Assembly: GCA_017552965.1 (NCBI GenBank)
Contig: JAFZNQ010000009.1
Span: forward strand, 220,564 to 284,563
Reading direction: 5' to 3'
From: Abditibacteriota bacterium
GTDB lineage: Bacteria > Armatimonadota > UBA5829
Length of the DNA: 64,000 bases
Part shown: positions 12,503 to 64,000 of the stretch, piece by piece
How the letters are laid out: each line of letters opens with the position of its first letter
How positions within the stretch are numbered: the stretch's first letter is position 1
Notes under the pieces: model-generated
What the model was told of the DNA's origin: nothing
Databases searched by the model: none
Seen by the model: the letters and a program-made list of their open reading frames with translations, nothing else
Translations under genes and position numbers: made by a program

Positions 12503-13372
12503 TCAATAGATCACCTTGTTCAGCGGGAATTCCACTATGCCTTCGGCTCCCGCCCTCTTTACCTGAGGGATCACGTTCCTCAGGGCCTTGTTGTCCACCA
12601 CTATTTCCAGAGCCACCCAGTTCTTGTCTGTGAGCTCATTGATGGTGGGAGTATTCAGGGCCGGCAGCAGGGAGAGCACCGCGTCCAGCTTTTCTCTGGG
12701 CACGTTCATCTTCAGGCCCGAGAGGGTCTCCGCCGTCAGGGCAGCCTGCAGCATGGTGGCTATGTTTTCTATCTTTTCTCTCTTGGCAGGGTCCGCCCAG
12801 GCCTCCTTGTTGCAGATAAGGCGGGTGGTGGATACCAGTATCTCGTCCAGTATGGCCAGACCGTGGGCCTTCAGGGTGGAGCCCGTCTCTGTGCCCTCCA
12901 CAATGGCGTCCACCAGCTCGGGCACCTTTACCTCGGTGGCTCCCCAGGAAAACTCCACCTTCACGTTGACCTTCCGGTCGGCAAAGTATTTTTTGGTCAC
13001 GTTGACCAGCTCCGTGGCCACGGTCTTGCCCTCCAGGTCCTCCGCGCATTTGATGTCCGAATCCCTGGGAGCAGCCAGCACCCATCTGTAGGGCTTGGAG
13101 GTGGCCTTGGAATATATCAGCTCGCAGACCTCCACCACGTCGGCGGAGCACTCGCACACGTTGTCATACCCGGTGATGCCAAAGTCCACGGCTCCCATCT
13201 CCACGTATCTGGGGATCTCCTGCGCCCGCAGCAGTATGGCGTCCAGCTCGGGATCGTCCACGGCGGGGGTATAGGAACGGCTGCGCACGGAAAAGCTCCA
13301 GCCGGCTTTTTCAAAAAGGTTGAAGGTCGCTTCCTGCAGCGAACCTTTGGGCAAAGCTATCTTGACCAACAT
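12503..13372 (-). CDS. hisG: ATP phosphoribosyltransferase HisG, long form with C-terminal regulatory domain
   Basis: The tracked ORF 12503..13900 has a spurious N-terminal extension. The true start is the ATG at 13370-13372 (MLVKIALPKGSLQE...) with RBS AGGAGTGAAT. Contains the HisG_C regulatory domain; about 290 aa. Confidence 0.88.
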   Translation of the reverse strand: MLVKIALPKGSLQEATFNLFEKAGWSFSVRSRSYTPAVDDPELDAILLRAQEIPRYVEMGAVDFGITGYDNVCECSADVVEVCELIYSKATSKPYRWVLAAPRDSDIKCAEDLEGKTVATELVNVTKKYFADRKVNVKVEFSWGATEVKVPELVDAIVEGTETGSTLKAHGLAILDEILVSTTRLICNKEAWADPAKREKIENIATMLQAALTAETLSGLKMNVPREKLDAVLSLLPALNTPTINELTDKNWVALEIVVDNKALRNVIPQVKRAGAEGIVEFPLNKVIY

Positions 13373-13374
13373 AT

Positions 13375-15405
13375 TCACTCCTGTTTGTTGTCTGCCAGAG
13401 CCAGATATGGCTTCAGCAGAATATAATCCAATTTGTCCGGAGACACGTTTTGCTGTACCGAAAGGGCGGCGGCGGCTCCCGCAGCCTGACCCGTGGCTAT
13501 GACGCAGGGCATGATCCTGGCGGCTCCCAGGCCTTCGTGAGTGGCGGATATGATCCTGCCGCAGCACAGCAGGCCGGGTATGCTCTTCACCGTGAGACAT
13601 CTGTAGGGAATCTCGTACCAGTCTCCCGGCGGCGGAGCGGCGGACTTTTTGCCCGACTCTTTGAGGGTGTAGCCCTCGCCGGAGGCGGAATGCACGTCCA
13701 CGGGATAGGCCAGCCGGCACACTCTGTCCCTGTGCTTCATGGAGCTGAGCACGTCCCTGTCCGAAAAGACGTAGTCCCCCACCACTCTGCGGCTTTCCCT
13801 GACGCCCAGTATTTTGGCCCGCTTCAGGAGATAGGCCTTTTCGAAGCCGGGCACTCTGTCCCGGACGAACCTCAGCACCTCCCGGAGCTGCTTTTGACAC
13901 TCTCCGGTCCCCCGGGCTATGTCCCCGGGCGAGAGAGGGTCAGCGAGGGCGGCGTGGGTCTGATTGAACACCACGGCGTCATAGCGGGGGCTCTGAGTCT
14001 TGCGATAGATGTAAAATATCATGTCGCCTGGAAAGTCCGAGCCCTCTTCTTTGGCCTTGCCCACCAGTGAAAAATAGCCGGCGGGGCTGTAGTTGGAGAG
14101 GGCGGTCTCAATGACGTCCGTCCCGGGCTCCAGCTTAGGAAAGAGAAACTCCTCCGGGCGCTCCGCCACGTATGCAAGAGCCCGCCTGACGTCCACGCCT
14201 CCCACGTCAAACATGAGAGTGGCGGCCTGGACCTGTCCCTTGCTGTCACCCGTGCGGGTCTCTGCGCCGAGACAGGCGGCGACTTGCGCGTCTCCCGTGG
14301 CGTCGATGAGACGGCGGCACTCCAGAAATCTGCCTTCCAGAGCCACCGCAAAGGCGCCGTTCTGGCGTCTCACGGCGGACACGAAGCCGCAGCGGGGCAA
14401 AAAGGTCACCCCCGCTTCCCGGAGCATATCCAGCAGCGCTTCTCTCATGGCAGAGGAGTCAAAGCAGTTCTTCCTGAGAGCTCCCCGGTCCGCGAGACGC
14501 TGTCTCAATTCGTCAAACAGGCCTCCCACCAGGGGCTTGCCGTCGGAAGTGCAGTGGGTCATGAAGGGATTCACCAGACCATAGACTGCCATGCCTCCGG
14601 GTCCCGGCAGCCTGTCGCAGAGGAGCACCGAGGCCCCTGCCCGCGCGGCAGATACTGCCGCGCAGACTCCGGCCAGCCCGGCGCCTGCAACGCACACGTC
14701 ATACACGGCGGCAAATTCCTCCCTGAGTATGCCCAGCGCCCGGGCGGCGGCATCTTTTTCCGCCGCTTTTTTGGAGGCGCCTGTTCCTCTGGCGAGCGTT
14801 CTCCCACTGAATAATACGCAATTTGTAAAGGTTTTGTTGTGGGGAGGCCCGGTCTCTTCCACCGTCTCGTAGGTGGGAGCCGAGTGGAACTTGTCCTGCA
14901 GCAGAGTCTGCAGGGCCGACTTGGTGTCCACGTCCTCTATGGCTTCCAGAGCAGACTCGATGCTCTCCGAGAGCTGCCCTCGCACAAAGGCTTCGCAGAC
15001 CTCCCGGCCGCATGAGAGATATATGGCGGCTGTCAGGGCCTCAAAGGTGTCGCACAGCACCGAGGGCCGCATGACCAGCCCGGTCTTCTTTTCGTTTTCG
15101 GACACCTGTATGTATTCGTAGAGCTTCAGCCGGCGGGCAGCCTCGGCAAGACTGGGCTCGCCGATGACCACGGCCTTCATCCTGCTCAGGTCTCCCTCGC
15201 GGCAATCGGGGTATTTGTCAAAAAGGATCCGGGCGACTATCTCGCCCACTATGCTGTCCCCCAGGAACTCGAGCCTTTCGTTGTACTCGGCGTCAAGGCC
15301 GTCCTGCCGGACCGACTTGTGCACGAAGCACTGGTCCAGATAGGCGGACGGGACGAGAGGGACCCCGGCCCTTTCGGACAATTCCCCGATCTGTTTGTCG
15401 TCCAT
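13375..15405 (-). CDS. rnc: Ribonuclease III (RNase III catalytic domain plus dsRBD) fused in frame to an FAD-dependent oxidoreductase domain
   Basis: Residues 1-~228: RNase III signature NERLEFLGDS, catalytic ...DTFEALTAAIYL, and a dsRBD (PHNKTFTNCVLFSGRTLARGTGASKKAAEKDAAARAL). Residues ~232-676: Rossmann FAD-binding motif YDVCVAGAGLAGVCAAVSAARAG and an FAD_oxidored-like body. No stop codon and no internal Met/RBS at the junction (ILREEFAAVYDVCV). Its start overlaps the stop of the upstream aminotransferase gene (TGATG). Confidence 0.8.
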   Translation of the reverse strand: MDDKQIGELSERAGVPLVPSAYLDQCFVHKSVRQDGLDAEYNERLEFLGDSIVGEIVARILFDKYPDCREGDLSRMKAVVIGEPSLAEAARRLKLYEYIQVSENEKKTGLVMRPSVLCDTFEALTAAIYLSCGREVCEAFVRGQLSESIESALEAIEDVDTKSALQTLLQDKFHSAPTYETVEETGPPHNKTFTNCVLFSGRTLARGTGASKKAAEKDAAARALGILREEFAAVYDVCVAGAGLAGVCAAVSAARAGASVLLCDRLPGPGGMAVYGLVNPFMTHCTSDGKPLVGGLFDELRQRLADRGALRKNCFDSSAMREALLDMLREAGVTFLPRCGFVSAVRRQNGAFAVALEGRFLECRRLIDATGDAQVAACLGAETRTGDSKGQVQAATLMFDVGGVDVRRALAYVAERPEEFLFPKLEPGTDVIETALSNYSPAGYFSLVGKAKEEGSDFPGDMIFYIYRKTQSPRYDAVVFNQTHAALADPLSPGDIARGTGECQKQLREVLRFVRDRVPGFEKAYLLKRAKILGVRESRRVVGDYVFSDRDVLSSMKHRDRVCRLAYPVDVHSASGEGYTLKESGKKSAAPPPGDWYEIPYRCLTVKSIPGLLCCGRIISATHEGLGAARIMPCVIATGQAAGAAAALSVQQNVSPDKLDYILLKPYLALADNKQE

Positions 15406-21123: not shown

Positions 21124-21834
21124 GTGGAGCTTATCCCGGCCATAGACCTGATAGACGGACAGTGCGTCCGCCTGATCAAGGGCGATTTTTCCCAAAAGAC
21201 CGTATATTCCGACGATCCCGCCCGGGTGGCAGCCAAATGGGCGAAGCACGCCCGTGTCATCCATCTGGTGGATCTGGAAGGCTCGAGACAGGGGCATCCC
21301 ATAGAGCTCTCCACCCTGTCCTCCATCCGGGAGTCCGTATCCTGCCTGCTGGAATACGGCGGCGGAGTGCGCTCCGAGGAGGACATCAGGGCCATCCTGG
21401 ACCACGGAGCCGACAGGGTCATTCTGGGCACCACGGCGGCGGCAGACGAAGCCTTTACCCGGGACATGCTCTCCAAATACGGGGACAGGCTGGTCATAGG
21501 CATTGACGCCCGGGACGGCCGGGTAGCCATCCACGGCTGGGAAAAGACCACCGAATACGCTCCCGAAGAGTTCGCTCTGAAGATGCAGTCCATGGGAGCG
21601 GCCCGCATCATATACACCGACATCTCCAGAGACGGGATGATGAAGGGGGCCAACGTCCCCGCCATGAAGGAAATGGCAGAGCTTTTGTCCATACCCGTCA
21701 TAGCTTCGGGAGGCGTCAGCAGCTACGAGGACGTCAGGAGCCTGTCGGCCCTGGGTCTGCTGGAAGGCGCCATCATAGGCAAGGCTCTTTATACGGGAGC
21801 CATAGATCTCGAGGAGGCCAGCAAATGGAAATAA
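21124..21834 (+). CDS. hisA: HisA: 1-(5-phosphoribosyl)-5-[(5-phosphoribosylamino)methylideneamino]imidazole-4-carboxamide isomerase
   Basis: GTG start with RBS AAGGAG 6 nt upstream. MELIPAIDLIDGQCVRL...VDLEGSRQG...IASGGVSSYEDV (beta-alpha)8 HisA motifs; 236 aa. Confidence 0.8.
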   Translation: MELIPAIDLIDGQCVRLIKGDFSQKTVYSDDPARVAAKWAKHARVIHLVDLEGSRQGHPIELSTLSSIRESVSCLLEYGGGVRSEEDIRAILDHGADRVILGTTAAADEAFTRDMLSKYGDRLVIGIDARDGRVAIHGWEKTTEYAPEEFALKMQSMGAARIIYTDISRDGMMKGANVPAMKEMAELLSIPVIASGGVSSYEDVRSLSALGLLEGAIIGKALYTGAIDLEEASKWK

Positions 21835-22550
21835 TCCCCGGCATGGACATCATCAACGGCCAGGTGGTTTGCGCCGAAAACATCGACTGGGCAGGCAACG
21901 GCCCCATCGACCACGACCCCGTGAACGTGGCCCGTTATTGGAAGAGCCAGGGAGCCCGGCACCTCTATATCTCCGATCTGGAGGGAGCCCGCTACGGCAA
22001 GCCCATGCATCTGGACATAGTGGCCAACATCATCAAAAACGTCAACATCAAGGTGTATCTGGGAGGCGGCATCCGCAATGCCGACGCTGCGGCCCGGGCC
22101 TTTGACGCAGGCATAGAAAAGGCGGTCATCGGCACCTACGCCGCTCTGGAAAACGACTTTGCCAAATACATGTTCGACACCTACAAGGGCCGCATCATAG
22201 TATCTCTGGCCAACATGAACGGCTACGTGTCCATCCACGACTGGACCGCCAGGACCGAGGAGACCGTGTACGAGTTCGCCGGCCGCATGGAAAAGATGGG
22301 CGCCGGCACCATAGTGTACAACGACGTGAACAGAAAGGGAGCTCACGGAGGCATCAATCTCCACACCATACAGAGGATGCTCTCCTCCACCGCCCTGCCC
22401 ATCATCATAGGCTGCGGCATATCGGACATAGACGACATCAGAGAGCTGAAGAAGTTCGGCGACAGGATATCCGGAGCCGTCATGGTCTCGGCCCTCTACA
22501 AAAATCTCATATCCTACAAGGATGCGGCCGCCGCTGCAAAAGAAGTCTGA
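21825..22550 (+). CDS. Second HisA/HisF-fold paralog (HisA-like)
   Basis: MEIIPGMDIINGQVV...ISDLEGARYGKP...IIGCGISDIDDI; 241 aa; RBS GAGGAGG; overlaps the preceding hisA by 10 nt. More HisA-like than HisF-like (no HisF-type VKGV-like N-terminal motif). Confidence 0.7.
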   Translation: MEIIPGMDIINGQVVCAENIDWAGNGPIDHDPVNVARYWKSQGARHLYISDLEGARYGKPMHLDIVANIIKNVNIKVYLGGGIRNADAAARAFDAGIEKAVIGTYAALENDFAKYMFDTYKGRIIVSLANMNGYVSIHDWTARTEETVYEFAGRMEKMGAGTIVYNDVNRKGAHGGINLHTIQRMLSSTALPIIIGCGISDIDDIRELKKFGDRISGAVMVSALYKNLISYKDAAAAAKEV

Positions 22551-45542: not shown

Positions 45543-48512
45543 ATGAAAAACAAAGCGCTCGTATACCTTATTATCGGCGGCGTCATCCTGGCCGCCATCA
45601 TAGTCTTCGGCTCCCTCTGGATGAGGTCTGCCGCCGGCAAGGACACCAGGTCCGTCATCAGGAGCCTGAACTCCATGTATCTGGAGGAGCTGGCAGTCCG
45701 CCGCGAGCAGGTAGTGGAGAAAAACCTCAACGAGAACGTAAAGCTCATAGACATAGCCGTAGGCCTTATGACCGCCGAGGACCTCAGGGACACCGGGCAC
45801 CTCATGGCTTATCAGTCCCGTATGAAAAAGCTCTTCAAGCTGGAGCGCTTTGCCTTCGTCAACACCTCGGGCCACATCTATACCTCCACCGGCGTCAAGT
45901 ACGACATAGACGAGTATCCCTTTGACTACAAGACCATCAAAGGACCTCAGGTGGCCGTGAAAAACGTGGCGACCACTCACAAGACGGTGGTCATAGCCAA
46001 GCCGGTGGACAAGGAGATAGCCGTCAGCGGCGACCGGCTCACAGTCTGCTTTATGGAGCAGGACATGAGCGTGCTGCTGGAGGGCGCCTCCATGGACACC
46101 CATGACACCGAGTCCACCTTCTGCAACATCTACACCCGGGAAGGCATCCCCCTCAGCGAGCTGGTGCTGGGCGGCAAGGCCTCCGAGACCAATCTGCTGA
46201 ACGCTCTGGCCAACGCAGACTTTGAACAGGGCTATTCCTACGAGCAGACCGTCCAGGATTTTCAGGGCGGCAAAAAGGGCATGATAGCCTTTTCCTACAA
46301 GGGCACCCGTGAGATGCTGGCCTTTGTGCCCGTCAAGGGCACCGACTGGCAGCTCACCTATCTGGTGCGCGAGAGCGTGGTCAGCTCCCGTATCGGCTCC
46401 GTGTTCAACACGGTGATAGCCAGGAGCCTGGTCCAGTCCGTGGCCTCCGCGGTATTGCTGCTCATACTCTTTGGCATCATCATCACCCAGATGGGCAGAA
46501 ACGTGCGCCTGACCATGGAAAAGGCGTCTGCCGACCTGATCATGGCCCTCTCGCGGAACTACAAGTCCGTGTTCTACGTGGATCTGGACAATGACACCGC
46601 CGCCTGCTACAGGGAGGACTCGGTCCTCACCGACACTCCCCGTCTGAACCAGGTGGTCTCCTACAGACACGCCGTCACCACCTACTCCGCCAGACACGTG
46701 GCGCCGGAGGACAGGGACAAATTCAACGAGTTCGTGGAGCCGGACGCGGTGCGGACCAACGTGGCCAACAACAATCTGTCTCTCCGCTATCTGGAAATGA
46801 CTCCCTCCGGCGAAAGATACACCATGCTGAAGATAGCAGGCGTATCCCACGGCCCCGGCAGCTCCGGCATAGTGTGCATGGGCTTTTCGGACGTGGACGA
46901 AGAGACCCGCCAGTCTCTCCTGCAGCAGCAGGCGCTGCAGACCGCCCTTGACACGGCGGAGGAGGCCAGCAAGGCCAAGACCACCTTCCTCTCCAGCATG
47001 AGCCATGAGATCCGCACCCCCATGAATGCCATCATCGGCCTGGACAGCCTGGCTCTCAGAAACAAGGACCTGCCGGAGGAGACCAGAGATTACCTGACCA
47101 AGATAGGCAGCAGCGCCAAGCATCTGCTGGGCCTCATCAACGACATACTGGACATGAGCCGCATAGAGTCCGGCAGGCTCACCCTGCGCAGCGAGGAGTT
47201 TTCCTTCAGGGACACCCTGGAGCAGATCAACACCATGGTCATGTCTCAGTGCTCGGACAAGGGACTGGAATACACCTGTCAGATGCTGGGAGGCGTCAGC
47301 GACTACTACATCGGCGACAACATGAAGCTGAAGCAGGTGCTGATCAACATACTCTCCAACGCCGTCAAGTTCACCGATGCCCCCGGCAGCATCCGCTTTA
47401 CCGTGGAGCGCCGTGAGACCAACCAGAACCACAGCGTCCTGGTCTTCACCATCAAGGACACGGGCGCCGGCATGGACCAGGATTTCGTGGACCATGAGCT
47501 CTTCAAGCCCTTTACCCAGGCTGAGGCCGGCAAAAACAGCAAATACGGCTCCACCGGTCTGGGCATGGCCATCACCCAAACCATCGTGACTCTCATGAAC
47601 GGCGAGATCCATGTGGATTCCAAGAAGGGCGTGGGCACCACCTTCACCGTGACCATCACCCTGAAAAACGCCGACAGCAATCACGTGGTCTCGGGCTATC
47701 TGGACCTGGCCGATATGAGAGTGCTGATAGTGGACGACGAAGAGGTATCCGCCGAGCACGCCCGCATGGTACTGGAGGAAGTGAGCATCAAAGCAGACGT
47801 GAGCTACAACGGCCCTGACGCCCTGCGCATGGTAGAGGTGGCCCACACCAAGCAGCAGCCCTACAATCTGGTGCTGCTGGACTGGAAGATGCCCGAGATG
47901 GACGGCCTGCAGGTAGCGGAGCAGATCAGGTCCCGCTACGACAGCGAGACCACGGTCATCATCCTCACCTCCTACAACTGGGAGGAGATCTATGACCAGG
48001 CTCTCCACGTAGGCGTGGACAGCTTTTTGGCCAAGCCTCTCTTTGCCTCCAATATCATCAGCGAATTTGAGACCATAGCCCGCAAGAACAATATGCAGCT
48101 CCGCAGGGAGAGGCCCAAGGCCGAACTGAAGGGCAGGCACATCCTGCTGGCAGAGGACATCCTCATCAACGCCGAGATCATGACAGAGCTGCTGGAGATC
48201 AGAGAGGTCCAGGTGGACCACGCCGAGAACGGCGAGGAAGCCCTGGCCCTGTTTGAAAACCATCCCTCCGGCTATTACAGCGCCATTCTCATGGACATAC
48301 AGATGCCCAGGATGGACGGTCTGGAGGCTGCCAGAGCCATCAGAGCCTCCCTGCATGAGGATGCCAGGAGCATACCCATCATCGCCCTTACGGCCAACGC
48401 CTTTGACGAGGACGTGCAAAAGAGCCTGCAGGCAGGTATGAACGCCCACCTGAGCAAGCCGGTGGAGCCGGAGACTCTCTTTGAGACTCTGGAGACCCTG
48501 ATCGTCGATTAG
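45543..48512 (+). CDS. Hybrid sensor histidine kinase: periplasmic Cache-like sensor between two TM helices, cytoplasmic PAS-like region, HisKA, HATPase_c and two receiver domains
   Basis: TM1 at residues 7-27 and TM2 ~290-312 bracket a ~260 aa extracytoplasmic domain. H-box FLSSMSHEIRTPMNAI; N/G boxes (NILSNAVKFT, DTGAGM, GSTGLGMAI). REC1 (VLLDWKMPEMDG) and REC2 (ILMDIQMPRMDG); no HPt. Candidate promoter TAGACA-18-TGtTATAAT at 45432-45461. Confidence 0.88.
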   Translation: MKNKALVYLIIGGVILAAIIVFGSLWMRSAAGKDTRSVIRSLNSMYLEELAVRREQVVEKNLNENVKLIDIAVGLMTAEDLRDTGHLMAYQSRMKKLFKLERFAFVNTSGHIYTSTGVKYDIDEYPFDYKTIKGPQVAVKNVATTHKTVVIAKPVDKEIAVSGDRLTVCFMEQDMSVLLEGASMDTHDTESTFCNIYTREGIPLSELVLGGKASETNLLNALANADFEQGYSYEQTVQDFQGGKKGMIAFSYKGTREMLAFVPVKGTDWQLTYLVRESVVSSRIGSVFNTVIARSLVQSVASAVLLLILFGIIITQMGRNVRLTMEKASADLIMALSRNYKSVFYVDLDNDTAACYREDSVLTDTPRLNQVVSYRHAVTTYSARHVAPEDRDKFNEFVEPDAVRTNVANNNLSLRYLEMTPSGERYTMLKIAGVSHGPGSSGIVCMGFSDVDEETRQSLLQQQALQTALDTAEEASKAKTTFLSSMSHEIRTPMNAIIGLDSLALRNKDLPEETRDYLTKIGSSAKHLLGLINDILDMSRIESGRLTLRSEEFSFRDTLEQINTMVMSQCSDKGLEYTCQMLGGVSDYYIGDNMKLKQVLINILSNAVKFTDAPGSIRFTVERRETNQNHSVLVFTIKDTGAGMDQDFVDHELFKPFTQAEAGKNSKYGSTGLGMAITQTIVTLMNGEIHVDSKKGVGTTFTVTITLKNADSNHVVSGYLDLADMRVLIVDDEEVSAEHARMVLEEVSIKADVSYNGPDALRMVEVAHTKQQPYNLVLLDWKMPEMDGLQVAEQIRSRYDSETTVIILTSYNWEEIYDQALHVGVDSFLAKPLFASNIISEFETIARKNNMQLRRERPKAELKGRHILLAEDILINAEIMTELLEIREVQVDHAENGEEALALFENHPSGYYSAILMDIQMPRMDGLEAARAIRASLHEDARSIPIIALTANAFDEDVQKSLQAGMNAHLSKPVEPETLFETLETLIVD

Positions 48513-48544: not shown

Positions 48545-51376
48545 ATGAGCCAAGAACACACACCGCAAGAGTATCACAGATACCTGTCACCCGTTGACGT
48601 CTGGGCGCTGGCCTTCGGCTGTATGGTGGGCTGGGGAGCCTTTGTCATGCCCGGCAACACCTTTCTTCCCGCCGCAGGGCCCGCAGGGACCATTTTGTCC
48701 CTGCTGCTGGGCGCCGCCATCATGATGGTCATAGCTCTCAATATGACCTATCTCATGAGGCGTTATCCCTCCACGGGAGGCATATACGCCTACACCAAGA
48801 ACCTGCTTGGCAGGGACCACGCCTTTATCAGCTCCTGGTTCCTCACGGTGTCCTATATCACCATACTGTTTCTCAACGGCACCGCTCTGTTTCTCATATT
48901 GAGGACCATATTCGGCCCCTCGTTCCATGCCGGCGCCCACTACCACATAGCCGGCACGGACATTTACGTCAAGGAGGTGCTCACCTCGGTGCTGGCTCTG
49001 GCGGGAGTGGGCTCTATATTCATCTTTTCCAAGCCCTTCCTCCAGAAGCTGCACACGGTGCTGGCCATCTGCCTTTTTGCAGGCTTAGGGGCCCTCACGG
49101 TCATATGCCTCTCCCGGGGGGCAGTCACGCCGGACACTCTCTTTTCCTACGGGACCCTGGGCATCCACAAGGGCAATGCCATACTGGGCCTGATGGTCCT
49201 GGCTCCCTGGGCCTTCGTGGGCTTTGAGATCATCTCCTTTGACACGGCCCACTACAGCTTTAGCATCACCCGGAGCAACGCCGTGATCATCACAGCCATA
49301 GCGGCTGCGGCTCTGGCCTACATTGCCTGCGCCGTCATTTCCGTATCGGTGGTCCCGGACGGCTGCGCTTCCTGGCAGGAATACATCTCCGGCCTGGGCA
49401 GCAGGACGGGCGTGGAGTCGGTGCCCACCTTTTATGCGGCAAAGGCCGCGCTGGGCGACTGGGGGCTGGCTCTCGCCGGCTTTACGGCCCTGTGCGCCAT
49501 CCTCACGGGCCTCATAGCCTCCTACCGGGGCAGCATGCGTCTCCTGTCCACCATGGCCGAGGACCAGATACTGGGCCACATATTCAACGACTCGGACGCC
49601 TGCATACTGTTTGTCATGGCCCTGTCCATCATATTGTCCTTCCTGGGGCGCAACACTCTCATCAGGTACGTGGACCTCACCTCCTTCGGAGCCATAGTCG
49701 CCTACGGCTACACCTGTCTCACGGCGATGCTGTCCGCCAGGGCCGACGGCAGGTCCGCATTCGCGCTCCTGGGATGGGTCGGCGTGGCGGTATCCGTCAT
49801 ACTGGGACTGGTGCAGCTGGTACCGGGCATCCTGCCTGCGGCTCTGGACCCCATGTGCAAGGAGTCCTTTCTGCTCCTGTCCCTTTGGTGTCTTCTGGGC
49901 TTCGCCTTTTACTGGCGCACCATCAACCGCAACACTCTGTCCGAATACAGAAACCTGTCCTATTCCGGCATCATACTGTTTGCCATACTGATGTATTCTG
50001 CCATCATATGGATGTCCAAGACCCTGTATCTCAACGGGGATCCCCGGCATATGCACGCTCTGATCCGCATATGCACCGTCACGGTGGTGGGCATCATCAC
50101 GGCAGGCTCCCTGCTCATGTTTATCATACTGTCCTTCGTCAGAAAAAAGCAGATGGAGCTGGAGCACGAAAAGTTCAAGGCGGAGAACGCCCGCGAAAAA
50201 GCCCTGGAGGGCAGCAAGGCCAAGAGCCGCTTTTTGTTCAACATGTCCCATGACATACGCACTCCCATGAACGCCATACTGGGCTACACTGCCCTGGCCC
50301 GGAAGCAGGACTCTGCGGAGGTCATGAAGGGCTATCTGCAAAAGATAGACAAATCCGGCCGTCACCTGCTGGACCTCATCAACGACGTGCTGGAGATGAG
50401 CCGCATAGAAAACGACAAAAAGGAGCAGCAGCCGGAGCCCGTGGATATAGCGGAGCTCTTTGACGACCTGCGGGACCTCTTTGCCGAGCAGATGACCGAC
50501 AAGGGACTGGCCTTCACCGTGGACAACTCGCGCATCAGAAACCGTTTTATCCGCTGCGACAAGATATGCCTCAACAGAGTGCTCATCAATCTGCTGGACA
50601 ACTCCTACAAGTTCACCCCGGCCGGCACCGTGTCCGTCAGGGTCGAACAGACAGAGGACGCCCCCGCCGGCTCCGCTGCCTTTACCATCACTATCAGCGA
50701 CACGGGCATAGGCATGTCCGAGGAGTTCGCCGCCAATATGTTCAGCTCCTTTGAAAGGGAGCGCACCTCCACCGTCAGCGGCATCCAGGGCACGGGACTG
50801 GGACTCTCCATCACCAAGAGCCTGGTGGAGCTCATGGGAGGCACCATTACCCCGGTCACCACCGCCGGCAAAGGCACCACCTTTGTCATTGACGGACTCG
50901 TCTTTCCTGTCCTGCCTGCCGATGAAGCGTCCGCTCTGGCCGGTGAAGAGGCGGACACTGCCAATGCGGACTTTTCCGGCAAGAGGCTGCTGCTGGTGGA
51001 GGACAACATCATCAACATGGAGATAGCCGAGGAGATACTGGGCGAGATGGGCTTTGACATCACCACTGCCGACAACGGACAGGCGGCCATCGACACCCTC
51101 ACCTCTCCCGCCACGGGCCCCATAGATCTGATCCTGATGGACATACAGATGCCTGTGATGAACGGCTACGAAGCGGCGAGAGCCATCCGCTCCCTGGAGG
51201 ACCCCGGCCTCTCGCGCATCCCCATCATAGCCATGACAGCCAACGCTTTTCAGGAAGATATACGGAACGCTATGGAGGCGGGCATGCAGGGGCATATAGC
51301 CAAGCCCATCGACGTGAAGGATATGACCCGGACCATCGCCAAAGTCCTGAAAGAGGGACCGGTGGCCGGCGCATAG
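48545..51376 (+). CDS. APC-superfamily amino-acid/polyamine permease domain fused to a histidine kinase (HisKA + HATPase_c) and a receiver domain
   Basis: Residues 1-~520: 12-14 hydrophobic helices with APC motifs (DVWALAFGCMVGWGAFVMPGN, GGIYAYTK, AFVGFEII). Then H-box FLFNMSHDIRTPMNAILGY, N-box LINLLDNSYKFT, G-boxes DTGIGM / GTGLGLSI, and REC with LILMDIQMPVMNG. 943 aa as one uninterrupted ORF starting 32 nt after the previous kinase. Confidence 0.85.
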   Translation: MSQEHTPQEYHRYLSPVDVWALAFGCMVGWGAFVMPGNTFLPAAGPAGTILSLLLGAAIMMVIALNMTYLMRRYPSTGGIYAYTKNLLGRDHAFISSWFLTVSYITILFLNGTALFLILRTIFGPSFHAGAHYHIAGTDIYVKEVLTSVLALAGVGSIFIFSKPFLQKLHTVLAICLFAGLGALTVICLSRGAVTPDTLFSYGTLGIHKGNAILGLMVLAPWAFVGFEIISFDTAHYSFSITRSNAVIITAIAAAALAYIACAVISVSVVPDGCASWQEYISGLGSRTGVESVPTFYAAKAALGDWGLALAGFTALCAILTGLIASYRGSMRLLSTMAEDQILGHIFNDSDACILFVMALSIILSFLGRNTLIRYVDLTSFGAIVAYGYTCLTAMLSARADGRSAFALLGWVGVAVSVILGLVQLVPGILPAALDPMCKESFLLLSLWCLLGFAFYWRTINRNTLSEYRNLSYSGIILFAILMYSAIIWMSKTLYLNGDPRHMHALIRICTVTVVGIITAGSLLMFIILSFVRKKQMELEHEKFKAENAREKALEGSKAKSRFLFNMSHDIRTPMNAILGYTALARKQDSAEVMKGYLQKIDKSGRHLLDLINDVLEMSRIENDKKEQQPEPVDIAELFDDLRDLFAEQMTDKGLAFTVDNSRIRNRFIRCDKICLNRVLINLLDNSYKFTPAGTVSVRVEQTEDAPAGSAAFTITISDTGIGMSEEFAANMFSSFERERTSTVSGIQGTGLGLSITKSLVELMGGTITPVTTAGKGTTFVIDGLVFPVLPADEASALAGEEADTANADFSGKRLLLVEDNIINMEIAEEILGEMGFDITTADNGQAAIDTLTSPATGPIDLILMDIQMPVMNGYEAARAIRSLEDPGLSRIPIIAMTANAFQEDIRNAMEAGMQGHIAKPIDVKDMTRTIAKVLKEGPVAGA

Positions 51377-56926: not shown

Positions 56927-58375
56927 CTAAGGGCCGTCGGTTTTTTCGGGGCGGGAAAAACGGCTGTTGTAGACCTCGGTCAGGGCCAGATACATCTCGA
57001 TGGAATGGCTCTGTATGACCTTGGGCGAGGCGGCTCCGTCGTGGATGAACGCCCAGATGATACCGTCAAAATCCTTGGGCACCCTGACGGCGTCCTTCAG
57101 GTTGCCCTCCACCATGGCCTTGCCCATGGCCACGCAGAACTCGTAGGTGGTCATGGGAGTCACCTTTTTGATGATGCCCTTTTTTGAGTACACTATCTGA
57201 TAAAAGGCCACGGGATTGGGGGCCAGACGGGTCAGGTCACCGATGATCTTGTTTTTTTCGGCCGCGGAAAAGCCCACGCATTTTACTCCGTCGGCTACCC
57301 GGGTGAAGACCTCCTTCAGCCGGGCCTTTTCGTCGGTGGAAAAGGAGCCGGAGTCTATGACGGCGCCGTCCACTCCGAAGTCCCACATGGGGATGCCCGG
57401 CACCAGGTCGCCTTCATACATAAAGCTGAAGCGGCCCGGCTTGTCTCTCATGGGATGTCTGGTGTAGTTGGGACAGGCGTACACGTAGCAAAACACCTTC
57501 TCAAAGCCCAGCTTGTCTATGCCCAGACTCATGATCTGAGCCACGGCCGCGCCTCTGGAATGGCCCGTCAGCATTATCACGCTGCCGGCGGGCAGAGGAT
57601 GCTCCGAGAGATAGCGCTTCACTATGGCGCCTCCGTCCGCCGCAGCGGCGGTAAAGCCCTTGTGGGCCCCGGTGTCGCCTATGTCAAAGTTGGAAAACCA
57701 TTCTCCGGCCACGGTCCCCCGGACCACGCACATCAGCAGCTCCCGCTCTTTGGAGCCGTCGTATATCTTCCTGTGGGCCAGATATATCCCGGCCCTGTCG
57801 CTGCGCTCGGTGTGCTCGGCGCCGTAATAATTGTATTTTTCCACGTCCCGGAAGCCCATGGACTCCAATAGTCCTCCCAGGGCCTCCGTGTCCTGCTTGC
57901 CGCCCCGCAGATAGCCGGCGCCGCAGAGCATGATGCCCAGCCGGCCCAGAGCGGGCTCGTAGTCCTCCGGCCTGCCTCCGAACATCTCGCCTCCGAAGGC
58001 AGCGTCTGCCGTGTATTCGGAGGACACGGAGCGGGACCCGTTGAGCCAGCCCGTATGCAGCAGCCGGACGCTGACGGGCGCGGGAGGGCTGATGAGCCGA
58101 TCCGGACGGGATGCTCCGGTGCTGATGACCCTGAGACGCAGGGTCTCGCCGGGGACTATCTTTTCCCAGCTGATGACAGCCTCGCCGTCCCGGGAATAGG
58201 CCGACGCCACAAAGCCCTCGTTTTCCTCTACGGCGTCATCCCAGAGGGACACCTTGAAGGTCTCGCCCGGGTCTCTGACCACTATGCCCCGCTCCCTGTC
58301 ATAGGTCACGGTCTCTGCCGCCATCAGGCTGCAGGCCGCTGCAATAAGGGCAAATACACACAGGATCTTTTTCAT
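56927..58375 (-). CDS. Secreted class-3 lipase-like alpha/beta hydrolase
   Basis: Signal peptide MKKILCVFALIAAACSLMA; nucleophile elbow LTGHSRGAAVAQI (GHSxG); 482 aa. Confidence 0.65.
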   Translation of the reverse strand: MKKILCVFALIAAACSLMAAETVTYDRERGIVVRDPGETFKVSLWDDAVEENEGFVASAYSRDGEAVISWEKIVPGETLRLRVISTGASRPDRLISPPAPVSVRLLHTGWLNGSRSVSSEYTADAAFGGEMFGGRPEDYEPALGRLGIMLCGAGYLRGGKQDTEALGGLLESMGFRDVEKYNYYGAEHTERSDRAGIYLAHRKIYDGSKERELLMCVVRGTVAGEWFSNFDIGDTGAHKGFTAAAADGGAIVKRYLSEHPLPAGSVIMLTGHSRGAAVAQIMSLGIDKLGFEKVFCYVYACPNYTRHPMRDKPGRFSFMYEGDLVPGIPMWDFGVDGAVIDSGSFSTDEKARLKEVFTRVADGVKCVGFSAAEKNKIIGDLTRLAPNPVAFYQIVYSKKGIIKKVTPMTTYEFCVAMGKAMVEGNLKDAVRVPKDFDGIIWAFIHDGAASPKVIQSHSIEMYLALTEVYNSRFSRPEKTDGP

Positions 58376-58384
58376 GCTGACTCC

Positions 58385-58420
58385 AAAAAGGGAGTCCCGC
58401 CCCTGCGGGCGGGATACTCC
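58385..58420 (-). terminator. Rho-independent terminator after carB
   Basis: ggagtcccgccc-ctgc-gggcgggatactcc hairpin. On the minus strand it is followed by CTTTTTGG. Confidence 0.75.
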
Positions 58421-58432
58421 AGGTCTATAGCG

Positions 58433-61400
58433 TCACAGTCCCAGATATTTCTGGATGCTGCGCACTGTGGTTTGCTGATGTCTGGCTGTCTCCAGACCTA
58501 TAAGGGTGGCTCTGGCTGCGGCCACCGTGGTGATGATGGGGATGCCCCTGGCTATGGCGCTGGCCCTTATCTGCACCTCGTCGCTCTTGGGCTTGCGGCC
58601 CGAAGGAGTGTTGATGATCAGATCCACCTGATTGTTGATGATCAGGTCGGTGGGGTCGGGGCGCCCGTTGCCTATCTTGCTCACGGTCTTGATGCCGTCG
58701 ATACCGGCAGCGGCGAGCTCTCTCGCTGTCCCCTTGGTGGCGTAGATGGTGAAGCCCAGGCTCTGGAGCTTCGAAGCGATATACTCGGCGTGCTTCTGGT
58801 CCTTGTGGGCCAGAGACAGGAAGGCAGTCCCCTTTTCGGGTATGCGGTTGCCGGCGGCTATCTGAGCCTTCAGATAGGCCACGCCGAAGTTCTGGTCTAT
58901 GCCCATGACCTCGCCGGTGGACTTCATCTCCGGGCCCAGCATGCAGTCCACTCCGGAGAACTTCACGAAGGGGAACACAGCTTCCTTGATGCACACGTGC
59001 TCGGGAGTCACCTCGGAGGTGATGCCCTGCTCCTTGAGGCTGACCCCCAGCATGATCCGGGTGGCTACCTTGGCCCACTGGACGCCGGTGGCCTTGGATA
59101 CGAAGGGCACTGTCCTCGAAGCTCTGGGGTTGACCTCCAGTATGTAGATGTCGTCGCCCTTGACGGCAAACTGTATGTTCATCAGACCCCGCACGTTCAG
59201 CTCTTCGGCCAGCAGGTGGGTCTGCCTCTTGATCTCATCCACTATATATCTCTTCAGGGTCCAGGCCGGTATGGAGCAGGCCGAGTCGCCGGAGTGGACG
59301 CCTGCATATTCGATGTGCTCCATGACTCCGCACACGAGAGTGGTCTCGCCGTCGGAGATGGCGTCCACGTCGATCTCGATGGCGTCATCCAGGAACTTGT
59401 CTATGAGCACCGGCTTTTCGGGGCTGGCCACCACTGCGCTCTTCATGTAGTTGGTCAGGGTCTCGTCGTCATAGACTATCTCCATGGCCCTGCCGCCCAG
59501 CACGTAGGAGGGGCGCACCAGCACGGGATAGCCCACCTTGTGAGCGGCCTCGATGGCCTCCTCTATGTTGACGGCTATGCCGTTCTCGGTCTGCCTAAGA
59601 CCCAGCTTCCGGAGCATCTCGGCAAAGAGCTCCCTGTCCTCTGCCCGGTCTATGGACTCGGGGCTGGTGCCCAGTATCCTGACGCCGGCCTTCTTCAGGG
59701 CCAGAGACAGATTCAGAGGAGTCTGTCCGCCCAGCTGGACTATGACGCCCGCGGGCTTTTCTATCTCCACTATATTCAGCACGTCTTCCCGGGTGAGAGG
59801 CTCAAAGTACAGCTTGTCCGAGGTGTCGAAGTCCGTGGACACGGTCTCGGGGTTGCAGTTGATGATGATGCTCTCGTAGCCCTGCTCCTTGAGGGCGTAG
59901 GAGGCGTGGACGCAGCAATAGTCAAATTCTATGCCCTGTCCGATCCTGTTGGGGCCGCCGCCCAGAATGATGACCTTTTTCTTGTTGTCCGTGGGATAGG
60001 CCTGATCCAGGGTCTCATAGGTAGAATAATAGTAGGGCTTCTCGGCCTCTATCTCGCCGGAGCAGGTGTCCACCTGATAATAGGTAGCGGAGGCTCCCTT
60101 TTTCTCTCTCAGATCCCGGATGGTCATCTCGTCCGTCTTCAGCAGGAAGGCCAGCTGTATGTCGGAGTAGCCCCATTCCTTGGCCGTCTTGATGAGGTCA
60201 AAGGGGACAGAGTCCACCGAGTATTTCAGGAGCTCGGTCTCCAGGTCCACCAGCTGGCGCACGTTTTCGATGAACCAGTGGTCTATCTTGCTCAGGTCGT
60301 ATATCTCCTGAGTGGAGAAGCCGTTTTCGATGGCGTGCTTCAGATAGAAGATGCGGTCGGCGTTGGGCTGGCCCAGCTTTTGCTTGATCACGTCTCTGGG
60401 AGCGCCACTGCGGGGCAGCAGGTCCTTGCCGTCGGCTCCCAGACCGTAGCGGCCCGTCTCCAGGGAGCGGATGCCCTTCTGCAGAGCCTCCTTGAAGTTG
60501 CGGCCTATGGCCATGGACTCGCCCACGGCCTTCATCTGAGTATTCAGAGTGGGGTCGGCGCCGGCAAATTTTTCGAAGGCAAAGCGGCACACCTTCATGA
60601 CTATGTAGTCGATGGAGGGCTCGAAGTCGCTCATGGTCTTGCCGGTGATGTCGTTGCGTATCTCGTCAAAGGTGAGCCCCACTGCCAGCTTGGCAGCCAC
60701 ACGGGCTATGGGGAAGCCGGTAGCCTTACTGGCCAGAGCGGAGGATCTGGACACCCTGGGGTTGATCTCGATGATGACCATCTCCCCGTTGTCCGGATTC
60801 AGACCAAACTGCACGTTGGTGCCGCCGCCCCGCACGTCGATGGCGCGGATGATCTTCCGAGCCACGTCCGCCAGACGGTTGATCTCCTCGGTGGAGGTGC
60901 TCATGGCGGGAGCCACCACGATGGAGTCGCCTGTGTGGACGCCCATGGGGTCTATGTTTTCCATGCTGGTGATGACGATGACGTTGTCCTCGCAGTCCCG
61001 CATGACTTCAAACTCTATCTCCTTCCAGCCCAGCACGGACTCTTCCACCAGAGTCTGATGCACGGGAGAGGTGGCCAGAGCCTTGGGGAGCATCTTCTGA
61101 TACTCTTCCATATTGTAGGCGGTGGCGCCGCCGGCGCCGCCCATGGTAAAGGCAGGTCTCAGAATGGCGGGGAAGCCTATTTCCCTGATGATCTCCATGC
61201 CCTCTTCCACCGACTCGGCTATGCCGCTGCGGGGAGTCCGGACGCCTATGGATTCCATGGTCTCCTTGAAGAGCTTGCGGTCCTCTGCCTTGGCTATGGC
61301 TTTTTCGTCACAGCCCAGCAGCTCCACGCCGTATTTGTCCAGAATGCCCTCGCGCTTCAAAAAGGTGCCCATGTTGAGGCCCATCTGGCCGCCCAGAGTG

Positions 61401-61663
61401 GGCAGCAGGGCGTCGGGGCGTTCCTGTGCTATGATGGCTTCCAGGGATTCGATGGTCAGAGGCTCTATGTAGGTGGCGTCTGCCATCTGGGGGTCGGTCA
61501 TGATAGTCGCGGGATTGGAGTTCACCAGGACTATCTCATAGCCCTCTTCCTTCAGAGCCTTGCAGGCCTGAGAGCCGGAGTAGTCAAACTCGCAGGCCTG
61601 GCCTATGACGATGGGTCCGGAGCCGATAATGAGTATTTTTTTGATATCTGTTCTTTTTGGCAT
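58433..61663 (-). CDS. carB: Carbamoyl-phosphate synthase large subunit
   Basis: 1076 aa; duplicated ATP-grasp modules and a C-terminal MGS-like domain; N-terminal [21 protein letters not shown]. Confidence 0.95.
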
Positions 61664-61664
61664 T

Positions 61665-62636
61665 TTATTCCTCCCGTGTTTTGATAGCGCTCACCAGATC
61701 CTGGGGCTTGTAGCAGAAGCCCATGACCATACCGTCCTCGCTGACGAAGGCCTCGGGGCTCTTGTCATGGAGGTTGGCTGCGGTGATCCGTATCCCTTTT
61801 TGCTCTTCCACCACGTAGCAGTGGTTCTGACTGGTGATCAGATTCTTGCGGGATGTACCCGGCTTCACAGGGATATTGGTCCCGTGATGCCCCAGTCCCA
61901 GAGACTTGATGCGGTAGCCTGCCGCCGCCGCGGCCAGGGCTGCGCCGTCTCCGAAGCCCACTACGGGCTTGCCGCCGGCAGCCCCTCTGATGGACTCCAG
62001 CACTTCGTCGCTGTCCGCCAGAAAAGCGGGAGCGTTGGATACTATGAGGACGTCAAAGGGCTTGCCTTCGCCGGCCACGGCTATGCCGCTGTCGGCGAGC
62101 ATGGAAAAGAAGGACTTGCCGGCCCCCAGATCCAGCACCGCTGCGGTCATGGCGGGAGATTTGACCTTCAGGGGCTTCATCACGGGAGTGTAGTCCACCT
62201 CGAAGGCCTTCAGCCGCTTTTTCAGCTCGGCCGCGGTGAGCTTTTTCTCCGACAGCACCGCCATCTGCTCGCCCTTTTCCCGCAGATGGACCAAGATGGC
62301 TCTGGTGTCAAAGCCTTCGCCAAAGGCCACGTCTGCCTTATCCACAAAGTCCAGCAGGGTCTCCTTGGCCCGGAAGTTGCTCATGGTGCGGCTGTACTCC
62401 TTGCAGATGATGCCTGCGGGACACACCACGTCGGACTCATTGTCCTCTCTGTTGATGCCCGTGGCGCCTATGATGGGAAAGGTGAACAGCATGATCTTTC
62501 CCGTGTTGGCAGGGTTCGTGATGACCTCTTCGTAGCCGAAGCCGCCGGTGTATATGCTCAAAAAGCCCGCGGTCTCCTGTACGCTGCCCAGACATTTGCC
62601 TTCAAATACGGCGCCGTCTTTGAGTGTTAAAAACAT
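61665..62636 (-). CDS. carA: Carbamoyl-phosphate synthase small-subunit homolog with a degenerate (predicted inactive) glutamine amidotransferase domain
   Basis: 323 aa. The CarA N-domain is conserved ([26 protein letters not shown]). In the GATase domain the Cys elbow GxCxGHQ reads [16 protein letters not shown] (Cys to Gly229; His-Gln to Ala-Ala), and the His/Glu of FxxxGHPE read GFCYKPQ (His to Lys310, Glu to Gln312). Its stop abuts the carB start. Confidence 0.8.
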
Positions 62637-62685
62637 ATGTGCCTCCTATCAAAAAAAAAGAACAAAGCCTATATCAGTGCTTCGT

Positions 62686-63177
62686 TCATTTTGCCTTGAA
62701 TAACATATACTTCCTGGCGTAGAAGTTCCAGAAAAAGACAATGACAGTGACAACTATTTTGGAAAACCATACGTTGGCCTCATTGGGCACAAATGATTTG
62801 ACGGTTTTGTCTGCGAGCTGTATGATCATATCTCTCACCGGACTGGTGTCCACCATTACATATAGCAGATAGGCGTGCAGCACGAGACCAATGACGCCTA
62901 TGAGCAGAAAAAGTGTGAACTCAAGACGCCTGTCGGTCACGGACCTCTGTGTAAAGATCCACTTTACCGACAACACGTATGACAGCACGACGCCTGCCAG
63001 AAAGCCTATAGATGATGCGGGGATATAGCCATAATGAAAGGTAAATATACCGAGAAACACTGCTGTCACCGCAAAATCCACCGCTGTATTCAGCAGACCT
63101 GCCACAGCAAACCTGACCAGCTGGCCAAAGCTGCTGTCGGTCGGCTCCAGTAATCCGGCCATAGAAATACCTCTCAA
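62686..63177 (-). CDS. GtrA-family membrane protein (polysaccharide synthesis/flippase-associated)
   Basis: VRFAVAGLLNTAVDFAVTAVF N-terminal GtrA motif; four TM helices; ~160 aa. Confidence 0.7.
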   Translation of the reverse strand: MRGISMAGLLEPTDSSFGQLVRFAVAGLLNTAVDFAVTAVFLGIFTFHYGYIPASSIGFLAGVVLSYVLSVKWIFTQRSVTDRRLEFTLFLLIGVIGLVLHAYLLYVMVDTSPVRDMIIQLADKTVKSFVPNEANVWFSKIVVTVIVFFWNFYARKYMLFKAK

Positions 63178-63243
63178 AAATATTCCCTTATAATATTATA
63201 ATACTCGGACACCGCCTTGTCAATATCATTTGGGAAAAAAATG

Positions 63244-63789
63244 TCAGTTGTATTTGTTCATCACATAGACAGGCCCTTCGGCTATCAGGTCCTCCAGGGC
63301 GTCGGCTGCGGCGCCGAAGGCCTCCTTCATCACCTCCTTCTCGGCGGCGGTGAATTTTTGCAGCACGTGGACCGCGGCGGAGCCTCCCCGGCCTATGCCC
63401 ACCCGCAGGCGGCAAAAGTCGGAGGTGCCCAGGTATTCTATGATGGACAGCATGCCTCTGTGACCTCCCGCAGACCCCCGCTCTCTGAAACGGAGAGTCC
63501 CTGCAGGCAGATCCATGTCGTCATACACCACCACCAGGTCGGCAGGCTCTGCGCCAAAACGCCTCATCACCGGCCTGACAGCCTGACCCGAGTTGTTCAT
63601 ATAGGTCATAGGCTTCACCAGGACCAGCTTTTCGCCCCGCAGGTTGGTCTCGGACACCAGAGCGTTGCCGGCAGTCCTGAAACGGGCGGAGAGCCTGCCG
63701 GCCAGAGTATTGACCACCTCAAAGCCCACGTTGTGGCGGGTCCTGGCGTATTCCATGCCCGGATTGCCCAGGCCTGCTATTATTATCAT
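63244..63789 (-). CDS. pth: Peptidyl-tRNA hydrolase
   Basis: MIIIAGLGNPG...TRHNVGF motif. I prefer the ATG at 63787-63789 (RBS GAGAGAGGG) over the tracked 63801. Confidence 0.9.
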   Translation of the reverse strand: MIIIAGLGNPGMEYARTRHNVGFEVVNTLAGRLSARFRTAGNALVSETNLRGEKLVLVKPMTYMNNSGQAVRPVMRRFGAEPADLVVVYDDMDLPAGTLRFRERGSAGGHRGMLSIIEYLGTSDFCRLRVGIGRGGSAAVHVLQKFTAAEKEVMKEAFGAAADALEDLIAEGPVYVMNKYN

Positions 63790-63837
63790 GCCCTCTCTCA
63801 AAAAAGGCGTCCCGAAGGACGCCGCTCGATCGTGTGT

Positions 63838-64000
63838 TATTTGTGATTTCTCAGGAAGCGCGCCGCCATGGCTATATCGTCGGCAGGATTCTCCCCTACT
63901 TCTCTCTCTATGACAAAGGTGCCGTCAAAGCCCACCTTCTTCAGAGCGGCCAGGTATTCGTCCCAGCGCACGTCGCCCTGTCCCAGAGGCACTTCCTTGT
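63838..64000 (-). CDS. Sugar phosphate isomerase/epimerase (xylose-isomerase-like TIM barrel) C-terminal fragment; gene continues beyond the window end
   Basis: Reverse-strand translation ends ...AMAARFLRNHK* (stop at 63838-63840). Upstream residues ...GQGDVRWDEYLAALKKVGFDGTFVIEREVGENPADD match the C-terminal strands of AP-endonuclease-2/xylose-isomerase-like TIM barrels. Confidence 0.45.

Follow-up and report, generated by a model that had tools for sequence, protein, structure and literature searches.

The window analysed here, a stretch of 64,000 nucleotides from the genome of an Abditibacteriota bacterium, carries near one end a two-gene locus for carbamoyl-phosphate synthase (CPS) whose small subunit, a CarA homolog, appears to be a pseudo-glutaminase. 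The gene for this 323-amino acid subunit, referred to below as the window carA, occupies 61665..62636 of the minus strand, stop codon included; it opens with an ATG (62634-62636), closes with a TAA (61665-61667), and is preceded at a distance of 5 nt by the ribosome-binding site GGAGG (62642..62646, minus strand). A single nucleotide separates its stop codon from the ATG of carB (58433..61663, minus strand), which encodes a canonical, full-length synthetase subunit of 1076 amino acids and whose own ribosome-binding site, GGGAGG (61670..61675, minus strand), is embedded in the final carA codons. This arrangement bears out the translational coupling to a full-length carB that was claimed in a preliminary description of the locus, in which a CarA with all three catalytic residues of the glutaminase replaced was first reported.

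On the same strand, 49 nt upstream of carA, lies the gene of a small membrane protein of the GtrA/DPMS family (62686..63177), and a consensus scan placed a putative sigma-70-like promoter ahead of it (TTGACA-17-TATAAT, 12 of 12 positions; 63195..63223, minus strand). Approximately 20 nt past the carB stop codon, a hairpin of 8 pairs, 7 of them G-C, is followed by a T-run in the manner of an intrinsic terminator (58395..58414, minus strand). The position of the promoter before the gtrA-like gene and of the hairpin after carB suggests a single transcription unit comprising the gtrA-like gene, carA and carB, and 63195..63223 is its likely start. A search of positions 58000-64000 with Rfam (E<=1) for an RNA leader or riboswitch returned nothing relevant. 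The order pth, gtrA-like gene, carA, carB and lipase-like gene is conserved in orthologous contigs. The last of these genes, directly downstream of carB and beyond the hairpin, encodes a secreted-looking class-3 lipase-like protein of 482 amino acids (56927-58375, minus strand), which holds the same position in the orthologous Abditibacteriota contigs L022 and L024. As regards the metabolic setting, the presence of argB and argD in the window indicates that carbamoyl phosphate is needed, and acetate kinase and phosphotransacetylase are encoded there as well. Relatives come from metagenome-assembled genomes (MAGs) of the yak and goat rumen, an ammonia-rich habitat.

By fold, domain order and gene context, the window protein is a CarA homolog. 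Its N-terminal CarA-specific domain, the part that binds CarB (residues 1-130; 62247..62636, minus strand), is well conserved, the Pfam CPSase small-chain domain PF00988 matching residues 3-127 over model positions 1-125 of 126 (E=1.6e-31). The remainder is a degenerate class-I glutamine amidotransferase (GATase)-like domain (residues 161-323; 61668..62156, minus strand), in which the fold is retained and PF00117, the class-I GATase family, is matched in part (E=3.4e-10). Both NCBIfam models for CarA match the protein from end to end at scores below their equivalog thresholds, namely 201 against a cut-off of 221 for NF009475 and 179 against 307 for TIGR01368, and it is because of these low scores that the identical protein of an Abditibacteriota MAG is named 'hypothetical protein' at NCBI. 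The AlphaFold2 model is confident, with a predicted local distance difference test (pLDDT) value of 93 and a predicted TM-score (pTM) of 0.90. When this model was submitted to Foldseek, the top PDB match was E. coli CarA, with a query TM-score (TMq) of 0.80, followed at a TMq of 0.76 by the inactive glutaminase portion of human CPS1.

The catalytic residues of the GATase-like domain have been lost. In a HMMER comparison with E. coli CarA structures, the window segment PVFGICLGHQLLA was aligned to a 13-residue E. coli segment, and MAFFT alignments that included E. coli CarA together with over 250 homologs gave the same pairing. At the nucleophile elbow, located by HMMER and in the AlphaFold2 model, C-L-G-H-Q of the E. 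coli protein is replaced by G229-D-G-A232-A233 (61938..61952, minus strand). Cys269 thus corresponds to Gly229 (codon GGA, 61950-61952), which sits between a predicted strand (225-228) and a predicted helix (230-238), while His272 and Gln273 correspond to Ala232 and Ala233. The rest of the triad, H353-P-E355, is aligned with K310-P-Q312 (61701..61709, minus strand), so that His353 has become Lys310 (61707-61709) and Glu355 has become Gln312 (61701-61703). The residue numbers and coordinates that the preliminary description had given for the replaced triad prove to be exact, as does its reading of Ala-Ala at the elbow. Its designation of His272-Gln273 as an oxyanion pair is to be corrected, since the oxyanion hole is formed by the backbone of Gly241 and Leu270 and Gln273 binds the substrate; its statement that the triad is absolutely required stands for Cys and His and falls for Glu355, which Huang and Raushel are said to have found, in 1999, not to be strictly essential.

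The losses extend to the binding of glutamine and to the path of ammonia. The glutamine contact Ser47 of E. coli CarA is Ala43 in the window protein (62508-62510), and the G241-P-G243-D-P loop, which forms part of the oxyanion and glutamine-binding site, reads A202-P-A-F-L206 (62019..62033, minus strand). Thr253 (61878..61880, minus strand) is aligned with the tunnel residue Gly293. The C-terminus is shortened, with deletion of the loop that carries Pro358, Gly359, Pro360 and His361 in E. coli CarA, and the protein as a whole falls 59 residues under the length of its E. coli counterpart.

Positions conserved in at least 90% of 48 canonical CarAs were taken as canonically invariant, and a clade of 12 degenerate CarAs was compared with them. 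The clade retains 19 of 28 such positions in the N-terminal domain, in keeping with the good conservation that the preliminary description had attributed to it, and 14 of 38 in the GATase domain. The latter belong to the motifs GHHGxNxPV and QNH, to Asp291 (also listed as Asp334) and to a few glycines, and all of the catalytic, oxyanion and glutamine-contact positions are lost. Neither an invariant Cys nor a conserved Cys/His/Glu set was found across the 12 members; since no Cys is invariant, the nucleophile has not been relocated, and the concern raised earlier that a proper alignment might place the triad elsewhere in the protein is thereby answered. Some relatives have a Cys at 272 or 273, which was considered as a relocated residue and rejected, being neither conserved nor present in the window CarA. 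Judged by its residues, the window CarA does not have the catalytic features by which an active class-I GATase is defined, and glutamine hydrolysis by this protein is excluded as far as a sequence can exclude it.

The partner subunit scores 1600.7 with NF003671, against a cut-off of 599, and its Pfam domains are complete: two ATP-grasp halves, the oligomerisation domain and the MGS-like allosteric domain. It is collinear with E. coli CarB over residues 1-340, a region that includes Cys232, Ala251 and Ala314, published as the triangular gate of the ammonia tunnel of E. coli CPS. Ala251 and Ala314 are retained in the window CarB, and the alignment places Thr232 (60968..60970, minus strand) at the gate residue Cys232 and Ala265 (60869..60871, minus strand) at Arg265. 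The same two positions are altered in the 120 CarBs nearest to that of the window (62-100% identity), whose named sources are Abditibacteriota, Armatimonadota, Margulisbacteria, Saganbacteria, Omnitrophica, NC10 and Aerophobetes: Thr stands at the Cys232 position in 115 of them, and Arg265 is retained in none (0/120), with Val, Glu, Ile or Ala instead. CarBs of Firmicutes and Bacteroidota loci, on the other hand, retain Cys232 and Arg or Lys at position 265 regardless of the state of their own CarA.

How widespread such small subunits are was assessed from a profile of the degenerate clade, run against 1.84 billion representatives, and from a scan of GTDB. In the profile search just three 50%-identity clusters scored 424-540 bits, after which the scores dropped to 255 bits; approximately two thirds of the next 147 representatives are without Cys269, mostly with Gly in its place. 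The GTDB scan, which was biased toward the Ser47 to Ala motif, found Cys-less CarAs adjoining carB in Armatimonadota, Omnitrophota, Christensenellales, other Clostridia and Syntrophomonadaceae, and also in Streptococcus entericus, two lactobacilli and Muribaculaceae (Cys to Ser). In 20 of the 21 GTDB loci the next gene downstream is carB, the one remaining locus having a truncated, N-masked gene, and the pairing with carB recurs in all of the further related loci. A neighbour-joining tree of 255 CarAs with Fitch parsimony gave at least 8 state changes, although so coarse a method, applied to so biased a sample, does not allow the losses of Cys to be counted.

Nineteen of the examined loci, among them one on the 8.2-Mb chromosome OW818698.1, have a CarB at least 61% identical to the window CarB and are treated here as a subfamily, which spans Abditibacteriota, Armatimonadota, Margulisbacteria, Omnitrophota, NC10 and Aerophobetes. 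In all 19 of their CarAs, Glu355 is missing and Cys269 is replaced by Gly, Ser, Ala or Gln. The two loci that alone keep His353, L028 and L030, are termed 'intermediate' here; in the others this position is Lys, Leu, Tyr, Phe, Asn or Ile. Gly293 is replaced in 18 of the 19 (by Thr, Val, Cys, Leu, Phe, Ile or Ala) and is Gly in L002. In E. coli numbering, the CarAs of L028 and L030 retain Ser47, GPGDP, His272, Gln273 and His353, only Cys and Glu being missing. The scope of the finding was underrated in the preliminary description: the locus belongs to a cross-phylum subfamily and does not stand alone as an oddity.

Several gene neighbourhoods in these relatives deserve mention. In L026, L028 and L030, all with a CarA of the intermediate kind (Cys to Gly, most glutamine contacts retained), a gene for a 311-amino acid GMP synthase without a GATase domain stands directly upstream of carA (1252-2187, 1437-2372 and 1819-2754, respectively). 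This synthase comprises the ATP-pyrophosphatase and dimerisation parts only, and its gene overlaps carA by 4 nt in L028. A genome-wide loss of glutaminase domains, which the GMP synthases of these three loci had suggested, was discarded because it is contradicted by full-length guaA and purF in Omnitrophota. On the Margulisbacteria contig L032 (1-2863), genes for an ammonium transporter (amtB), a P-II protein (glnK-like), a PAS protein and an ANTAR regulator precede the Cys-less carA-carB pair, an arrangement that hints at nitrogen-status control of this type of CPS.

Cys-less CarAs were noted outside the subfamily as well. In Streptococcus entericus DSM 14446 (L013), a cultured strain, in the Clostridia loci L011, L012, L014 and L018, and in a Muribaculaceae locus (L017), the Cys is replaced by Gly, Ala or Ser, and the adjacent CarBs keep Cys232 and Arg or Lys at 265; these look like separate glutaminase losses in gut-associated Firmicutes and Bacteroidota. 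In the cultured lactobacilli Lacticaseibacillus sharpeae (L019) and Fructilactobacillus vespulae (L021), a CarA with Cys269 replaced by Gly (match at ~10001-11070) passes the NCBI 'glutamine-hydrolyzing' cut-offs, and the adjoining CarB-like protein is ~26% identical to the window CarB and has lost many conserved tunnel residues; this pair may be a different, possibly non-CPS system. Indeed, when 8 Cys-less CarAs from outside the Abditibacteriota clade were tested, all of them passed the NF009475 cut-off and 6 passed that of the 'glutamine-hydrolyzing' model TIGR01368. The phenomenon has probably been hidden by annotation.

That the window carA is a genuine gene follows from several observations. 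Gly229 is invariant in the 12 clade members, which are 41-86% identical; its codon, GGA, requires two base changes to become a Cys codon (TGY); and four contigs, drawn from NCBI, ENA and Logan assemblies, encode the identical protein. For these three reasons a sequencing error at codon 229, against which the preliminary description had advised a check, is excluded. The G+C content at the three codon positions (0.58/0.42/0.77) resembles that of neighbouring genes. Among four orthologs, the pairwise ratio of nonsynonymous to synonymous divergence (dN/dS) is 0.14-0.19, and by domain 0.04-0.18 for the N-terminal domain and 0.14-0.25 for the GATase-like domain, with dS between 0.5 and ~1.8 (NG86), the top values of which are near saturation; for the adjoining carB, dN/dS is ~0.045. 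The small subunit therefore evolves several-fold faster than CarB and is clearly constrained in both of its domains.

Taken together, the residues of both subunits suggest that the carA-carB pair is probably a two-subunit CPS which cannot take nitrogen from glutamine and which uses free ammonia. CarB would perform its successive steps, making carboxyphosphate, then carbamate, then carbamoyl phosphate. The window CarA would be a pseudoenzyme that keeps the fold, the CarB-binding N-terminal domain and the tunnel or interface motifs GHHGxNxPV and QNH; it would be retained as part of the holoenzyme architecture, where it may stabilise CarB and probably shapes the entry of ammonia. The earlier suggestion that the degenerate subunit is kept as a partner of CarB is supported by its fold, by purifying selection and by the consistent pairing with carB. 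Such an enzyme is plausible because E. coli CarB on its own, in the absence of CarA, forms carbamoyl phosphate with ammonia as substrate, and because CarB2 of Bacteroides thetaiotaomicron provides a precedent.

As to the route that ammonia would follow, external NH3 is proposed to enter via a new opening at the subunit interface. From the loss of the Pro358-His361 loop, together with a small residue in place of Arg265, Thr in place of Cys232 and a bulkier residue in place of Gly293, we infer that the old path from the glutaminase pocket is closed. The existence of a new port is a weaker proposition. In E. coli, the combined substitutions alphaP360A/alphaH361A/betaR265A, which Kim and Raushel are said to have described in 2004, reportedly perforate the tunnel wall, with glutamine use abolished and ammonia use kept; in the subfamily this loop of the alpha subunit is missing or substituted and beta-Arg265 has disappeared, so that the natural enzyme may possess an open interface port. 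More tentatively still, as a proposition somewhat readier to fail than to hold, we suggest that the entire cross-phylum subfamily is natively ammonia-dependent and has co-evolved a re-routed ammonia entry, in which the replacement of Gly293 would shut the ancestral tunnel on its glutaminase side, the missing Pro358-His361 loop and the lost CarB Arg265 would breach the wall, and Thr would stand in for the gate residue Cys232.

Comparison with known systems places the locus more precisely. The E. coli CarA-CarB pair has the same carA-carB order, the same two-domain CarA fold and a canonical CarB, but the window CarA is without its Cys269, His353, Glu355, Ser47, GPGDP, Gln273, Gly293 and Pro358-His361 loop, and the window CarB differs in having Thr232 and Ala265. 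With vertebrate CPS I the window system has in common the retention of a catalytically dead, CarA-derived glutaminase-like moiety and a larger residue at the Gly293 position. In human CPS1 this residue is Gln318, which blocks the ancestral tunnel, and ammonia from solution has been proposed to arrive by another path; Thr253 may block the tunnel of the window CarA in a similar manner. Unlike the two separate genes of the window, however, CPS I is a single fused polypeptide that needs N-acetylglutamate, and it keeps the His and Glu of the triad (Cys being replaced by Ser) as well as the Cys gate residue, whereas the window system has lost the whole triad and the oxyanion loop and has Thr at the gate. 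The carA-carB pair therefore falls outside the CPS I family, of which it would be a functional analogue with an independent, bacterial origin.

The closest bacterial parallel is CarB2 (BT3866) of B. thetaiotaomicron, for which fitness evidence has shown a specific requirement at high ammonium and which has been proposed to be an ammonium-dependent CPS; its authors noted that every bacterial CPS hitherto characterised depends on glutamine, and CarB2 is the one exception that has been proposed among bacteria. Both systems are CPSs of bacterial gut anaerobes with an inferred direct use of ammonium. CarB2, however, is an orphan large subunit and is backed by genetic evidence, whereas the window system, described from its sequence, has a conserved degenerate small subunit coupled to carB. 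A precedent for keeping a dead subunit exists in the pyrimidine pathway of Pseudomonas, where the dead dihydroorotase PyrC' is reported to be an obligatory structural subunit for the assembly of aspartate transcarbamoylase; as its fold and its complex are different ones, the parallel is confined to the retention of an inactive partner. Full-text searches of the literature outside subscription journals brought up no earlier account of a bacterial CarA lacking this Cys.

Some considerations weigh against a physiological dependence on ammonia. Neutral divergence of the lineage, unrelated to ammonia entry, could account for Thr232 and for the absence of Arg265. The Km of E. coli CPS for ammonium is very high. 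Furthermore, the ability of E. coli CarB to work without CarA leaves the retention of a dead subunit explained only by the analogy with CPS I. Finally, the genome may encode elsewhere a second, canonical carA/carB pair or a carbamate kinase, as in the dual systems of B. thetaiotaomicron.

Ammonia would also be the source of nitrogen in the explanation that comes nearest to this one, according to which the dead subunit is a regulatory sensor whose remnant pocket binds glutamine or another metabolite of nitrogen status and thereby tunes CarB. Purifying selection acts on the GATase-like domain in its own right (dN/dS 0.14-0.25), and GHHGxNxPV, QNH and the clade-specific His290-Asp291 are invariant, all of which a sensor would account for; moreover His312 of E. 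coli, which affects the binding of glutamine, is kept in the window protein as His272. The state of the L028 and L030 CarAs is, in addition, the one expected of a non-hydrolysing binder, similar to the C269S crystal form 1C30 of the E. coli enzyme. The window CarA itself, however, is without most of the known glutamine contacts (Ser47, Gly241, Gly243 and Gln273), and the retained motifs are equally well explained as elements of the tunnel or the interface. We regard a sensor as unlikely, albeit as the alternative with the strongest claim to attention.

A source of glutamine-derived ammonia in trans seems to us quite improbable. Under this explanation, a separate glutaminase would dock onto the complex, or a canonical CarA encoded elsewhere would compete for CarB. 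B. thetaiotaomicron does possess a canonical CarAB beside its ammonium-type CarB2, and the amidotransferases encoded in the same operon in L033 retain their GATase domains, so that the use of glutamine has not been lost genome-wide. Yet neither a second carA nor any other GATase was found with Pfam among the 41 open reading frames (ORFs) of the window or in an extra 8.6 kb of upstream flank; the N-terminal domain of the window CarA is predicted to occupy the docking site of a CarA; its gene is translationally coupled to carB; and substitutions occur throughout the subfamily at Gly293 and Cys232, the tunnel positions that would have to conduct ammonia away from a glutaminase site. Between the two outcomes that the preliminary description had offered, an ammonia-dependent enzyme or the recruitment of a separate glutaminase, the former is favoured because CarB co-varies at the tunnel and a docking glutaminase is without support.

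It is more improbable still that the GATase-like domain has acquired a new hydrolytic or transfer activity, relying on different residues and another amide donor. The clade-specific invariant His290, which lies beside the universally invariant Asp291, and the conserved His251 and His272 could form such a site, but no Cys, Ser or Thr is conserved at or near the elbow across the clade, and positions 269, 353 and 355 vary between members, which marks them as relaxed sites and not as a new active site. Least of all is the gene a decaying pseudogene or an assembly or sequencing artefact, an idea that its 'hypothetical protein' label and its scores under both CarA cut-offs might invite and that is refuted by an intact frame with a ribosome-binding site and neighbour-like codon-position G+C, by dN/dS of 0.14-0.19, a confident AlphaFold2 model and conserved synteny, by an identical sequence in independent assemblies, and by the two base changes that a Cys codon would require.

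Should the proposal of an ammonia-dependent CPS with a dead glutaminase be true, the subfamily would represent a parallel to vertebrate CPS I that arose independently in bacteria, the view of bacterial CPSs as all glutamine-dependent would be overturned, and some database entries named 'glutamine-hydrolyzing' would be wrong. CPS is a textbook case of ammonia channelling, and a locus of this type, in which an inactive glutaminase subunit has been conserved and has co-evolved with an intact synthetase across many uncultured phyla, is more informative than the orphan CarB of Bacteroides. An ammonia-dependent enzyme of this kind would show a route of nitrogen into arginine and pyrimidine synthesis in ammonia-rich anaerobic habitats, would represent an independent natural experiment on the origin of CPS I-type enzymes and on the retention of dead domains, and would pinpoint CarB residues 232 and 265, CarA residue 293 and the CarA 356-366 loop as relevant to ammonia entry. 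Since Cys-less CarAs pass a 'glutamine-hydrolyzing' model while the most degenerate ones stay 'hypothetical', metabolic reconstructions of the phyla concerned may err in both directions.

The window contains other genes of an unusual composition. On the plus strand, hisA (21124-21834; TIGR00007, 255 bits against a cut-off of 229) overlaps by 10 nt a second HisA-like gene (21825-22550), the product of which is 33% identical to that of hisA. The second protein scores under the hisA cut-offs and far under the hisF cut-off, and its top PDB matches are HisA/PriA. It occupies the usual place of hisF, with no hisH nearby, and may act either as a diverged cyclase subunit or, as a paralog of HisA, in some other role. 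A gene at 48545-51376 (plus strand) encodes a protein of 943 amino acids in which an amino-acid permease domain (14-431) is joined to HisKA, HATPase_c and receiver domains, that is, a transporter-fused hybrid histidine kinase, and adjoins the gene of a hybrid kinase of 989 amino acids (45543-48512).

On the minus strand, an uninterrupted ORF of 676 amino acids (13375-15405) combines RNase III and dsRNA-binding domains (22-224) with an FAD-dependent oxidoreductase (236-664), and is either an unusual fusion or two genes joined by the longest-ORF rule; its 3' part overlaps a long upstream extension of the hisG ORF (12503-13900). Another minus-strand gene, at 430-2271, encodes a 613-amino acid protein with the unusual pairing of an HMGL-like domain of the pyruvate carboxyltransferase type (64-337) and a C-terminal dCache_1 domain (475-605).

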